A stretch of 64,000 bases of DNA from Eubacterium sp. (GCA_024698965.1 JAILQM010000083.1:8882-72881); one strand, 5' to 3'. Positions 24,559 through 28,798 are shown, counted from the first letter of the stretch. Made by a program: numbers and translations. The notes: generated by a model from the letters alone, not told the origin.

Positions 24559-25197
24559 TTACCCCCTTAATACTTCAAACATTCCTCCGTCGCCTATCTC
24601 TACCTTTGCCGCGCCTCCCGTGGCTTCGGTAATGGCGTTTACTACCTTGTCCTTTTTATCCCCCGGAACTAAAATATCCATCTCTACATTTTCCGTATAC
24701 CTTGTATCCGTGGTCATGATTTCTTCGGTTCTTACTATATATTCTATCTTGCCCAAACCGTTATAATCAGTCGTAACACTGACCGGATAGCAGAATTCCA
24801 TCTCAGCTATCCTGCTGCATTTAATTCCTTCCCTTACAGCTGCCTGATAGGCTCTTACGAGTCCTCCCGTACCAAGCAAAACGCCGCCGAAATATCTTGT
24901 TACCACAACTACTGCATTATGAATATTTTCTCCGAGTAAAACGTCAAGCATGGGGCGTCCCGCAGTTCCGGACGGCTCCCCGTCGTCAGAGCATCTTGTA
25001 ATCTCGCTTTTTTCGCCGATTACAAATGCGCTGCAGTTATGACGCGCATCCCAGTACTTTTTTTTCATCTCATTTATAAAGGCGGTTGCTTCCTCTTCGG
25101 AGCTTACACTTTTAACGGTTGCAATAAATCTTGATTTCTTTTCGACTATCTCACCGCTTCCGCCTTCTTTTACCGTTCTGTATGTTGCTTCACTCAT
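24559..25197 (-). CDS. yigZ: YigZ (IMPACT/UPF0029) family protein
   Basis: EKKSRFIATV…ARHNCSAF…DDGEPSGTAGRPML…VVVTRYFGG.LLG.GGL motifs are typical of YigZ. Confidence 0.85.
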   Translation of the reverse strand: MSEATYRTVKEGGSGEIVEKKSRFIATVKSVSSEEEATAFINEMKKKYWDARHNCSAFVIGEKSEITRCSDDGEPSGTAGRPMLDVLLGENIHNAVVVVTRYFGGVLLGTGGLVRAYQAAVREGIKCSRIAEMEFCYPVSVTTDYNGLGKIEYIVRTEEIMTTDTRYTENVEMDILVPGDKKDKVVNAITEATGGAAKVEIGDGGMFEVLRG

Positions 25198-25204
25198 GCT
25201 TTAG

Positions 25205-25233
25205 ATTATAACTTATGCTTCTTTTCATCGCAA
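25205..25233 (-). promoter_or_regulatory. Candidate promoter (TTGCGA-17-TATAAT) placed 7 nt from the yigZ ATG (possible leaderless mRNA)
   Basis: On the reverse complement, TTGCGA is at 25228-25233 and TATAAT at 25205-25210. No SD lies upstream of the ATG at 25197. Confidence 0.45.
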
Positions 25234-25248
25234 CAATTCTTATATTTC

Positions 25249-26103
25249 CGTAACGCATTTACTTTACTAGCCTCGCTCCCGCAAGCCATCTCCCATACTT
25301 TCGAAAACGCATACCGATTGAAGTTTGCACTGCTTTATTTGTCAGCGTTTTCTCGGCATGGGGCCCTCTTGCTCGCGCTCGGGCCTACTTTTACAGTCGA
25401 TGGGCATATTCATAAATTGCCCGTAACGCATTTACTTTGCCACCCTCGCTCCCGCAAGCCATCTCCCATACTTTCGAAAACGCATACCGATTGAAGATTG
25501 CATTACTTTGTTTGTCAGCGTTTTCTTGGCATGGGGCCCTCTTGCTCGCGCTCGGGCCTACTTTTACGGTCGACGGGATATACAAGAATTGCCCGTAACG
25601 CATATTCTTTGCCAGCCTCGCTCCCGCAAGCCATCTCCCATACTTTCGAAAACGCATGCCGATTGAAGATTGCATCACTTTGTTTGTTAGCGTTTTCTCG
25701 GCATGGGGCCCTCTTGCTCGCGCTCGGGCCTACTTTTTTGGTCGACGGGCTTTCTTTATATATTTGTTGCACGTAACGCACTTACTCTGCCACCCTCGCT
25801 CCCGCAAGCCATCTCCCATACTTTCGAAAACGCATGCCGATTGAATCCTGCCTTACTCTATTTGTTAGCGTTTTCTCGGCATGGGGCCCTCTTGCTCGCG
25901 CTTGGGCCTACTTTTACGGTCGACGGGCATATTCATAAATTGCCCGTAACGCATATTCTTTGCTTGCCTCGCTCCCGCAAGCCATCTCCCATACTTTCGA
26001 AAACGCATGCCGATTGAGCCCTGCCTTACTCTATTTGTCAGCGTTTTCTCGGCATGGGGCCCTCTTGCTCGCGCTCGGGCCTACTTTTACGGTCGACGGG
26101 CGG
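25249..26103. repeat. Tandem array of five repeat units of about 172-178 bp (non-coding)
   Basis: Units start at about 25249, 25422, 25594, 25772 and 25945 with CGTAACGCA. Two cores are invariant: CCTCGCTCCCGCAAGCCATCTCCCATACTTTCGAAAACGCAT and GGCATGGGGCCCTCTTGCTCGCGCT(C/T)GGGCCTACTTTT. Three variable segments separate them. Confidence 0.9.
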
Positions 26104-26129
26104 TTTTATATACGAAAATGCGGCAAACC

Positions 26130-26197: not shown

Positions 26198-28798
26198 ATG
26201 GACTACAGTAAAGAAGAAGTAAGTAAAAAGAAAAAGAACCTAAATTCAAAAAGAAAAAAGAATCATCCGTTCTTTTCCGCATTTAAGATAGTAGTATGTT
26301 CGCTTATTGCAATAGGCTGTATCGGACTTTGCTGTTTATTCGGTCTTATTAACGGAGCGCTTGCAAGTGCGCCTTCAATAGACTCAATAGACGTTTCTCC
26401 CACAGGCTTTGCAACAACGGTGTATGACAGTGAAGGCACGGAGCTGACACAGCTCGTATCATCGGGTTCAAACAGAGTCTATGTAACAATAGATGAAATA
26501 CCCGAATGTGTGCAACACGCATTTGTCGCTATAGAAGACAGCCGTTTTTACGAGCATAACGGTATCGACATTAAAGGTATTATCCGTGCGGCATTTATCG
26601 GTATTACCACGGGTAACTTCTCAGAAGGTGCTAGTACAATCACTCAGCAGCTTCTTAAGAACAATGTCTTTACGACCTGGACAAGTGAGTCAAGTTTCGG
26701 CGAAAAGCTCAAGCGAAAGATTCAGGAGCAGTACCTTGCCGTCGAGCTTGAAAAGGTAACGGATAAAGATACGATTCTCGAAAACTACCTTAATACAATT
26801 AACCTCGGTCAAAACACCTTAGGTGTAGAGGCCGCATCAAACCGATATTTTAACAAAGATGTTTCTGAGCTTACAATATCAGAAGCTGCGGTTATTGCGT
26901 CAATTACGCAAAACCCTACAAAATACAATCCTGTAACAAACCCTGAAGAGAATGCAACAAGACGTGAAAAAGTATTGGGCAATATGCTTAAAGACGGCTA
27001 TATAACAGAAGCCGAATATAATGAAGCCCTTGCGGATGATGTTTATTCGAGAATTCAGGATATTAACGAATCGACAGAAACATCCATCTACTCATACTTC
27101 GTAGATGAGCTTATAGAGCAGGTAATAAACGATCTTCAGGAACAGAAGGGTTATTCCGAATCTCAGGCCTACAAGCTATTATACAGCGGCGGCCTTTCGA
27201 TTTACACAACTCAGGATCCGGAAATTCAGGCTATATGCGACGAAGAATACCAGGATTCATCAAACTTCCCGGATTCTACGGAGTGGACGGTTAACTTAAC
27301 GCTTACCATAGAACATTCCGACGGTACCTACAGTTATTATGATGAGCAGTCAATGCTTTCATATTATAAGGCTAACGTATCTTCAAGCTCTTACCTAATA
27401 TACAGTACGAAAAAAGAAGCCAAGAAGGCCGTTCGTGCATACGAAAAGGCTATTATGGAAGCCGGAGATACAATACCTGAAAACGGCGAGGTTATTACAT
27501 ATGTAGCCCAGCCGCAGTCATCTATTGTAGTAATGGATCAATCCACCGGAGAAGTAAAAGCCATTGTCGGCGGACGAGGCAAAAAGCAGGCTTCTCTTAC
27601 ACTTAACCGAGCAACAAACACTTATCGTCAGCCAGGTTCTACATTTAAAGTTGTATCGACATTTGCTCCGGCAATTGATGCGGCAGGATATACCCTCGCT
27701 TCCGTCCAGGACGATGCTCCTTACAGCTATTCCGACGGAACAACCGTCCACAACTACGATAATTCATATGGCGGCTTTACAACAATAAGACGTGCGATTA
27801 TGAAATCAATAAACATAGTTACCGTAAAAACACTTACGGATATCACTCCGCAGCTCGGTTATAATTACCTGTTAAACTTCGGATTTTCAAAGCTTTCAGA
27901 ATCAGACATCGTACAGTCCCTTGCCCTCGGAGGTATTACAACAGGTGTATCAAACTTAGAGCTCACCGCATCTTATGCGACAATAGCAAACGGCGGCACT
28001 TATACGGAGCCTATCTTCTATACAAAAATACTTGACCACGACGGCAATGTGCTCATTGAAAACGAGCCTGAAACAAGACAGGTATTACAGGAGACAACAG
28101 CCTTCCTTCTTACAGATGCAATGGAAGACGTTGTAACAAGCGGAACAGGTACAGCAGTAAACTTCGGTACTACAGCAATAGCCGGAAAAACAGGTACAAC
28201 AACTTCAAATGTTGACTCATGGTTTGTCGGATTTACAACCAGCTATACTTGCGGCGTATGGGGCGGATATGACACTAATGCCTCCCTTAGCTCAACTACC
28301 TACACCAAGAATTTATGGCGAGCAGTTATGTCTAGGATTCACGAGGATATGGAATACGAGAGTTTCCCTGTACCGGATGGTATTGTGAAAGCCTCTGTAT
28401 GCTCTAAATCGGGACTTTTACCTATAGACGGAGTTTGCTCTAACGATCCGAGAGGAAGCATGGTGATAACAGAATACTTTGCCAAAGGCACGGTTCCTAC
28501 AGATTACTGTAACCACCATATATCGGTTACAATTTGTGAAGATTCCGGTCTTATAGCGAGTGATTACTGCCCTGAAAGCAGCAAAACCACTCAGGTATTT
28601 ATAATAGACGGTTCGTCTTCAACCTCAGACGGTTCATATCTCTATGATGATATAGCCGATCAGATATGTAATATTCACGACGGTTCGCAAACCGAAGAAG
28701 CAACCGACGAAGAGACAACAGAAACCGAAGAAGACACCGGTGCAGAAGAAACCTCTGACGATAGCCAAAGCGACACAGGAACGGAAACTGCAGAATAG
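26198..28798 (+). CDS. Class A penicillin-binding protein (PBP1A family; glycosyltransferase plus transpeptidase) with an acidic C-terminal tail
   Basis: An N-terminal TM anchor, GT51 motifs (EDSRFYEHNGID, GASTITQQL, RKIQE) and transpeptidase motifs STFK and KTGTT. Confidence 0.92.
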   Translation: MDYSKEEVSKKKKNLNSKRKKNHPFFSAFKIVVCSLIAIGCIGLCCLFGLINGALASAPSIDSIDVSPTGFATTVYDSEGTELTQLVSSGSNRVYVTIDEIPECVQHAFVAIEDSRFYEHNGIDIKGIIRAAFIGITTGNFSEGASTITQQLLKNNVFTTWTSESSFGEKLKRKIQEQYLAVELEKVTDKDTILENYLNTINLGQNTLGVEAASNRYFNKDVSELTISEAAVIASITQNPTKYNPVTNPEENATRREKVLGNMLKDGYITEAEYNEALADDVYSRIQDINESTETSIYSYFVDELIEQVINDLQEQKGYSESQAYKLLYSGGLSIYTTQDPEIQAICDEEYQDSSNFPDSTEWTVNLTLTIEHSDGTYSYYDEQSMLSYYKANVSSSSYLIYSTKKEAKKAVRAYEKAIMEAGDTIPENGEVITYVAQPQSSIVVMDQSTGEVKAIVGGRGKKQASLTLNRATNTYRQPGSTFKVVSTFAPAIDAAGYTLASVQDDAPYSYSDGTTVHNYDNSYGGFTTIRRAIMKSINIVTVKTLTDITPQLGYNYLLNFGFSKLSESDIVQSLALGGITTGVSNLELTASYATIANGGTYTEPIFYTKILDHDGNVLIENEPETRQVLQETTAFLLTDAMEDVVTSGTGTAVNFGTTAIAGKTGTTTSNVDSWFVGFTTSYTCGVWGGYDTNASLSSTTYTKNLWRAVMSRIHEDMEYESFPVPDGIVKASVCSKSGLLPIDGVCSNDPRGSMVITEYFAKGTVPTDYCNHHISVTICEDSGLIASDYCPESSKTTQVFIIDGSSSTSDGSYLYDDIADQICNIHDGSQTEEATDEETTETEEDTGAEETSDDSQSDTGTETAE

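Follow-up and report, generated by a model that had tools for sequence, protein, structure and literature searches.

The five tandem units that fill the intergenic region between yigZ and PBP1A in the window (the whole 64,000-nucleotide stretch of Eubacterium sp. DNA analysed here) have probably arisen from a single member of a dispersed family of non-autonomous, hairpin-forming intergenic repeats, through its tandem amplification at this site. The repeat appears to be a selfish element, or one that has been co-opted, and not a series of small-RNA genes. It reads as a previously undescribed intergenic family of a small number of Lachnospiraceae-like lineages from rumen or gut. In the mechanism that we propose, one copy would have arrived between yigZ and PBP1A via trans-acting mobilisation or recombination and would then have multiplied by unequal crossing-over or replication slippage. 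The complementarity of its arms may have been kept largely at the DNA level, through template switching in the quasi-palindrome together with conversion between copies, and selection against the disruption of mRNA hairpins in operons may have added to this.

The array had been described in the original prediction as five tandem copies of a unit of about 175 bp, and this description was borne out. Tandem Repeats Finder reports a period of 173 with 4.9 copies, 89 % matches and a score of 1327 for window positions 25248-26101, and covariance-model searches place five head-to-tail units of approximately 160 nt each at 25246-26104, separated by spacers of 12-18 nt and beginning no more than 3 nt from the starts first given. 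The bit scores listed here were obtained with two covariance models: R1, built from nine units (those of the window, of a second contig of the same genome, C13, and of the congener G005), and R2, built from the R1 units and the copies of a genome of another genus, G234. The unit strand is the strand that was modelled; relatives in operons are mostly transcribed as its reverse complement.

24559..25197, minus strand: yigZ (IMPACT family), left neighbour (Pfam UPF0029 3e-41, DUF1949 1.5e-14)
25205..25233, minus strand: yigZ promoter-like site TTGCGA-17-TATAAT, 10/12 matches, directed away from the array
25246..25405, plus strand: unit 1, R1 184.4 bits, R2 136.4 bits (cmsearch, with alignment); its terminal stem, at the array edge, is degenerate (TTCCGT...ATGGGC)
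25406..25418, no strand: inter-unit spacer ATATTCATAAATT, which recurs at 25929-25941
25419..25578, plus strand: unit 2, R1 191.3 bits, R2 141 bits
25579-25590 and 25751-25768: remaining inter-unit spacers
25591..25750, plus strand: unit 3, R1 192.8 bits, with a perfect 6-bp terminal stem GCCCGT/ACGGGC
25769..25928, plus strand: unit 4, R1 184.5 bits
25942..26101, plus strand: unit 5, R1 190.5 bits
26130..26158, plus strand: PBP1A promoter-like site TTGAAT-17-TATAAT, directed away from the array and kept in G005, which lacks the array at this site
26198..28798, plus strand: class A penicillin-binding protein, right neighbour (Pfam Transgly 1.1e-61, Transpeptidase 6.2e-35)

The names first given to the two neighbours were confirmed by Pfam, the left one being a YigZ/IMPACT protein with UPF0029 and DUF1949 domains and the right one a class A penicillin-binding protein. 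The -10 hexamer of the yigZ promoter-like site ends 7 nt before the ATG at 25197, which fits a leaderless mRNA. Within the family the position of the array is atypical, between two promoter-like sites that both fire outward, and it probably lies outside both neighbouring mRNAs and has no dedicated RNA product. That the array is non-coding, as had been claimed, agrees with the short ORFs that cross it, with their shift in frame between units and with periods that are not multiples of 3. A coding element was likewise rejected for the family, in which ATG-initiated frames vary in frame and length between copies.

When the five units are aligned, mean column identity is 90 %; pairwise identities range from 87.5 to 93.8 %, and the relationships among the units are mosaic. 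The two cores described as invariant are both unchanged in 5/5 units, and the three variable segments between them, also seen at the outset, correspond to the unpaired parts of the hairpin. Differences within the array avoid the stems: 7/76 paired columns vary versus 23/85 unpaired columns (Fisher p = 0.004), which, at this level of identity between units, implies some constraint or hairpin-templated correction since the amplification. The array is therefore not of very recent origin, and either selection or such correction has maintained its stems. Each unit is a conserved structure in which invariant blocks alternate with variable loops, and not a decaying unique duplication, in line with what had been surmised from the sequence.

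Every copy of the repeat is one long, imperfect, rod-like hairpin, which measures about 160 nt in the window units. It begins at its base with a terminal stem, followed by an internal loop of loose conservation, then the core helix, a central stem and, at the tip, an apical module. As read on the modelled strand, GCTCCCGCAAGCCATCTCCCATAC and GGCATGGGGCCCTCTTGCTCGCGCT are the two conserved strands that make up the core helix, which is interrupted by small internal loops that are fixed; the word GCG(C/G)GAGC occurs on both arms in the same orientation. The apical module varies by subfamily and may contain a nested hairpin of approximately 70 nt. Terminal stems are perfect and 6-15 bp long, and their sequences are unrelated from copy to copy. 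The central stem of the window units is the pair of complementary octamers GAAAACGC and GCGTTTTC that had been noticed in every unit. Both octamers are indeed present in each, and the stem is real, since it covaries in the family to GCATGGGA/TCCCATGC, GCTAGG/CCTAGC or GCCAGG/CCTGGC. Covariation is also visible by eye in the replacement of GCAAG/CTTGC by GCAGG/CCTGC, GGAAG/CTTCC, GTAAG/CTTAC or GTAGG/CCTAC.

Among 105 distinct copies, 93.9 % of the cells in paired columns hold standard pairs, as compared with 72.9 % in column shuffles and 33-47 % when the partners are slid against each other; these alignments were fitted to the covariance model, which favours the structure, although the margin is very large. 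Double-sided changes occur in 26 of the 33 pairs. Folding of single sequences is not decisive, as the z-scores against shuffles are only -0.2 to -2.9, with the minus strand performing slightly better. Wobble pairs are also ambiguous as a guide to the strand: two U-G pairs that are conserved point to the modelled strand, but A.C pairs scattered through the central stem point to the opposite one. The family-wide fold places the bases of two further complementary pairs, GGCCC/GGGCC and CATGCCG/CGGCATG, in the core helix. The second pair had been considered a possible alternative pairing or pseudoknot; the complementarity exists as sequence, but it is broken in units 1 and 2 and in the C13 and G005 copies, and the proposed alternative structure is not supported.

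With regard to distribution, the genome to which the window belongs (a 2.23-Mb MAG in 141 contigs) holds seven units by BLAST of one unit: the five in the window, on contig C29, and two in tandem on C13, which are 81-82 % identical to a window unit and lie between a gene for an ABC-F ATPase and a thioesterase/purA pair. A BLAST search of 60 relatives gave matches only in the congener G005 (uncultured Eubacterium sp. Rumen_Coassembly_mag_1555), which has two units. A BLAST search of this kind had been put forward as a means of learning whether the unit is confined to its locus, and the answer is that it is dispersed, with copies on a second contig and in a congener. The nine-unit model then revealed six dispersed, shorter copies in G234, which belongs to a different genus of the same family, and with the second model the element was found in 28 of 34 genomes of that genus, with 1-50 dispersed copies each. 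Within the window's own genus, only two of the 11 genomes give a match to the same model, and only 3 of 400 genera sampled in this bacterial family carry the element. The short version in the genus of G234 is 131-148 nt long, and a few variants of approximately 205 nt add an apical hairpin.

Metagenome contigs contributed about 35 more model-verified copies, apparently mostly from rumen or gut, judging by the record names. A looser two-block pattern had matched more than 120 metagenome contigs, mostly by chance in G+C-rich soil DNA, and it is from these that the model kept the approximately 35. A pattern with the exact core and the GAAAACGC stem matched only G005 among GTDB genomes and nothing in metagenomes, from which it follows that the 160-nt subtype is rare. 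No BLAST match to the repeat was obtained among plasmids and phages, and both pattern matches in viral contigs were due to chance. No RNA family had been recognized in the original prediction, and a search with Rfam 15 at E <= 10 similarly returned nothing inside the array, ribozymes and riboswitches included; seven loci of the G234 genus gave no match at E <= 0.1. A weak match to SQ2397 (E = 7.3) lies outside the array, and one to mir-548 is spurious. A literature search on repeats in Lachnospiraceae or Butyrivibrio found nothing relevant of such a kind. The possibility that the unit would turn out to be a known repetitive extragenic element, which had been raised at the outset, was thus essentially borne out: it is a dispersed intergenic repeat, although of a family previously undescribed.

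Comparison of orthologous intergenic sites shows that the element can be present or absent between relatives. The argJ-argB spacer contains the element only in G234, and most congeners have a gap of 15-35 nt without a hairpin. The purN-purD spacer, about 180 nt long in G234, is empty in a related metagenome contig, L125 (TAA-AAGGAGAATAAGT-ATG). At the locus of the window itself, the closest congener, G005, in which the N-terminus of PBP1A is 92 % identical, has a yigZ-PBP1A spacer of approximately 112 nt without the element, so that the 1-kb region is as unusual as had been suspected. G005 also keeps the PBP1A promoter words to the right of the insertion point, and the whole 860 bp of the array are hereby shown to be an insertion between two back-to-back promoters. 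Every copy with a resolvable context sits between ORFs. The five units share the terminal stem GCCCGT/ACGGGC and similar spacers, and in independent insertions the stems are always unrelated; the array therefore derives from one inserted copy. The two-unit array on C13 grew likewise, by duplication of one copy. In the other genus, what looks like the 3' end of another copy (CTGCTCGCGCTGCCAAGGTTGTGTGCTGAAAAAAAA) is found on the element strand approximately 20-60 nt downstream of the copy at 1501-1639 of locus L021, which suggests that decayed or partial tandem copies occur there too.

The search for a mobile-element signature gave negative results. No flanking direct repeats indicative of a target-site duplication were seen among 64 copies inspected, the copies have no conserved terminal inverted repeats, their terminal stems being unrelated, and no mobilising enzyme was found for the repeat; the lack of these three features counts against the interpretation as a repeat element. 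Nor was there any sign among the copies inspected that the stems derive from target sequence. An origin of the unique stems by insertion into a pre-existing hairpin was rejected as well, because the empty argJ-argB and purN-purD sites have no hairpin, and one subfamily carries its variable stem inside a conserved outer frame. A BLAST search with a full copy in the four richest genomes, aimed at separated halves, returned full-length or closely paired matches besides solo matches of 27 nt, with no evident autonomous parent IS having the same ends.

Several other elements were noticed in the neighbourhood of the repeat. A second, unrelated hairpin repeat of approximately 100-170 nt, which we call E2 and which is not in Rfam, occupies the argJ-argB spacer of six species of the G234 genus and adjoins several copies of the main element. 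Its sites are as follows.

L061, 1329-1496: E2
L079, 1400-1497: E2
L073, L066, L074 and L076: E2 (argJ-argB)
L044, 607-705: E2

E2 and one subfamily of the main element share the outer frame (T)TA(A/G)ATGA|GC...GC|GGA(C/T)TAGGAGG. In G005, the two units (L014 4960-5099, minus strand, and L015 5479-5618, plus strand) each lie about 100 nt from an element resembling TwoAYGGAY (RF01731), which scores 33-36 bits, below the gathering score of 43, and unit and neighbour together form a duplicated module of approximately 500 bp. On contig C93, a 50-bp inverted repeat flanks this module, and a terminator-like hairpin forms part of the repeat.

The manner in which complementarity is maintained bears on the level at which the hairpin evolves. 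Pairs in the freely varying helices are Watson-Crick in 94-95 % of cases, and wobble pairs make up less than 3 % on either strand, no commoner than other mismatches; an RNA selected to stay paired would not usually show such a near-absence of wobble. Orthologous copies differ by 2-4 double, complementarity-preserving changes per stem of 8-10 bp, and their flanks are 86-99 % identical. Template switching in quasi-palindromes has been reported to perfect inverted repeats and to produce apparently compensatory changes in single events (PMC7202029; PMC8794818). At one site, two genomes agree exactly over the outer 45 nt of either side, unique stem included, but differ in subtype over the inner 65 nt. 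The breakpoints of such inner modules fall at the invariant blocks GCGAGCA and TGCGGGAGC, and the swaps of inner parts are gene conversion between copies. The patterns of complementarity thus fit DNA-level processes, and the swaps fit recombination among copies. A deletion derivative between GAGCA direct repeats was seen at approximately 1650-1727 of L032 (genome G441), immediately downstream of a second, full copy in the opposite orientation; the orthologous site in G437, G445 and a metagenome contig is occupied by a full copy.

Two orthologous pairs are more conserved than their surroundings. In the first, the copies are 99.3 % identical and the flanks 87-88 % (1/142 nt versus 75/600 changed; Fisher p = 1.6e-6), and in the second 98.5 % and 90-92 %, respectively (2/131 versus 53/602 changed; p = 0.003). 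This hints at purifying selection, or else marks a recent recombination tract. The higher conservation of intact orthologues than of their coding flanks also speaks for the alternative that survives best, namely that the family is a cis-acting structured RNA module of mRNAs, acting as the reverse complement of the modelled strand. Such a module might stabilise transcripts between cistrons, serve as a processing site, regulate translation of the gene downstream or be a self-cleaving ribozyme of a new kind. Its spread would have been like that of the multi-copy ribozyme or riboregulator families, and the window array would be a displaced and possibly inert offshoot. We regard this alternative as unlikely.

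Its main support comes from orientation and context. In the genus of G234, the modelled orientation is antisense to the genes in 21 of the 23 copies whose neighbours are co-directional (21:2), and in three closed or nearly closed genomes 17 copies are antisense versus 4 sense. As operon copies are antisense as modelled, transcripts usually carry the reverse complement of the strand that was modelled, which corresponds to the minus strand of the window. With dnaA as the marker of the replication origin, four of five copies beside lagging-strand genes follow transcription and not replication, and a replication-strand bias was for this reason rejected as the cause of the orientation. One nearly closed sequence, G466:C2, has two genes with a DnaA domain, at 64806-65300 and 1000209-1000700, and the one at 1.0 Mb was taken as the origin. 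Most copies end 8-20 nt ahead of the downstream ribosome-binding site in tight operon spacers, and the mixed contexts in the closed genomes are all convergent 3' ends, never a divergent promoter region. The fixed internal loops, read on the gene-sense strand, are rich in purines (G.A, G.G, A.G), as is typical of RNA motifs, and a very conserved core with free stems is known from ribozyme and riboswitch families. Both the transcription-linked orientation and the extreme conservation of the core, which fit a functional RNA as well, count against the repeat-element interpretation.

However, the variable helices that an RNA of this kind would be expected to fill in part with wobble pairs have hardly any. 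The distribution is sporadic, in three of the 400 genera and with presence or absence at the same site among congeners, and the neighbouring genes are unrelated (purD, argB, prfC, polysaccharide genes). In addition, the window array is upstream of both flanking promoters, and the C13 copies are oppositely oriented to genes, with the modelled strand sense to their neighbours. The bias itself could equally be explained by the purging from operons of the orientation in which the hairpin precedes a T-run, so that an RNA role in mRNAs and such purging are both possible causes. Hammerhead and twister ribozymes have a conserved core in internal loops or junctions, free stems and a sporadic distribution, and they occur in many copies and occasionally in tandem arrays. 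The repeat resembles them in its conserved core, free stems, sporadic spread, many copies and tandem arrays; unlike them, it matches no ribozyme model in Rfam, nor any riboswitch model, even at E = 10, and G-U pairs are nearly absent from its variable stems. A functional structured RNA, either a new ribozyme or an mRNA-embedded regulator, is a rather doubtful proposition for the family, and it is unlikely to explain the window array.

On a tentative and more speculative note, the conserved core, with its GCG(C/G)GAGC strands and purine-rich loops, could represent a structured nucleic acid of a new class; we do not think this likely. It might be, for example, a self-cleaving or protein-recruiting RNA of operon spacers, or the recognition hairpin of a single-strand-specific mobilisation system able to work without conserved ends or target duplications. 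In that case, a dedicated or structure-driven mechanism would maintain the terminal stem, which is hypervariable yet always perfect.

A role for the array as a DNA architectural or protein-binding module between divergent promoters, in the form of cruciform-prone spacers or of regulator sites at the conserved blocks or TACTTT words, might be suggested by its location exactly between back-to-back promoters and by the same-orientation GCG(C/G)GAGC words on both arms. It also contains 17 TACTYT words within 860 bp (window 25260-26087, plus strand; three or four per unit), where approximately one is expected; they lie on one strand only and all within unpaired parts of the hairpin, and the extra words are specific to this locus, being absent from the C13 copies and from the other copies of the family. 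However, the other members are single copies in transcribed spacers without a link to promoters, the closest congener has the same two promoters without the array, and no candidate binding protein was found, and we consider this role improbable.

The leading idea of the original prediction, one discrete small-RNA gene per unit, fared no better. In this model each unit would have its own promoter and a weak terminator, in a tandem array like LhrC1-5 of Listeria or NsiR1 of Anabaena, which are tandem arrays of sRNAs with a promoter and a terminator in each unit. Several head-to-tail structured units of approximately 100-170 nt in an intergenic region are indeed common to both. A weak TTTAC(A/G)-17-TAAATT site is found at the unit junctions, one of which passes the scan, on the plus strand CTACTTTT follows a 5-bp G+C hairpin in every unit, and both changes in the internal stems within the array are wobble-compatible on that strand. 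However, no unit has a significant promoter: three promoter-like sites were found versus 1.7 +/- 1.3 in shuffled sequence, two of them being those of the flanking genes. The GGCCC...GGGCC hairpin with the adjoining TACTTTT, which had been called weakly terminator-like, exists as sequence, but as a terminator it is unsupported, because in the family-wide fold their partners lie in the 5' half of the unit; the T-run is missing from the C13, G005 and G234-genus copies, and no other copy of the family has either the T-run or the small hairpin. A transcript ending at the T-run would moreover lack the 3' arm of the terminal stem, and the relatives are single copies in operon spacers, antisense to this strand. 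With unit promoters and terminators neither significant nor conserved, unlike those of LhrC1-5 and NsiR1, independent sRNA genes are very unlikely. A neutral minisatellite unique to the locus, which the head-to-tail organisation and mosaic relationships of the units might bring to mind, is refuted, since the unit is dispersed in its own and other genomes, the fold is conserved and the variable positions avoid the stems.

The interpretation as a dispersed hairpin repeat can also be viewed against described systems. Ninety-two stem-loop-containing intergenic repeat families of bacteria were catalogued by Cozzuto et al. 2008 (PMC2267715; see also Petrillo et al. 2006, PMC1590033). Both features by which such families are recognized, a repeated intergenic sequence and a common predicted stem-loop, are found here. 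The ERIC/IRU, Correia/NEMIS, RUP and BOX families resemble the repeat in their length of approximately 100-200 bp, their intergenic and dispersed location, their long imperfect hairpin, their frequent co-transcription with neighbours and a copy number that varies widely between related genomes. In contrast to these families, the repeat has no conserved ends in the form of terminal inverted repeats, each copy having a perfect 6-15-bp terminal stem of its own, and no duplication of TA or another target; its core is asymmetric with fixed internal loops, its apex is modular and it is restricted to 3/400 genera. No sequence similarity to any described family of this type was found. MITEs are similarly small, non-coding, multi-copy, insertion-polymorphic and able to fold back, but the conserved terminal inverted repeats and target-site duplications that define them were tested for and are absent here. 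REP/BIME elements, which are associated with RAYT transposases, are palindromic extragenic repeats (PMC2817692; PMC3733652). They are alike in being tolerated within transcribed spacers, in clustering and in evolving as hairpins at the DNA level. However, REPs are 20-40 bp long, have a conserved GTAG or CGTC head and alternate in orientation within BIMEs, whereas the units described here are 131-160 nt long, are arranged head-to-tail and have no conserved head tetranucleotide.

A noticeable part of the intergenic DNA of bacteria consists of hairpin repeats, which can affect mRNA stability, termination and genome rearrangement; to our knowledge, very few such families have been described for gut and rumen Clostridia. 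The present family is also a caution for the discovery of non-coding RNAs, as strong covariation statistics arise here independently of any transcript evidence. If it is true that the core is a ribozyme or the recognition hairpin of a mobilisation enzyme, the interest of the family would be considerably higher. With its near-invariant core, its free Watson-Crick stems, its cassette-like inner swaps and an orientation tied to transcription, the family is a good natural system in which to distinguish hairpin covariation that results from RNA function from that produced by template switching at the DNA level.
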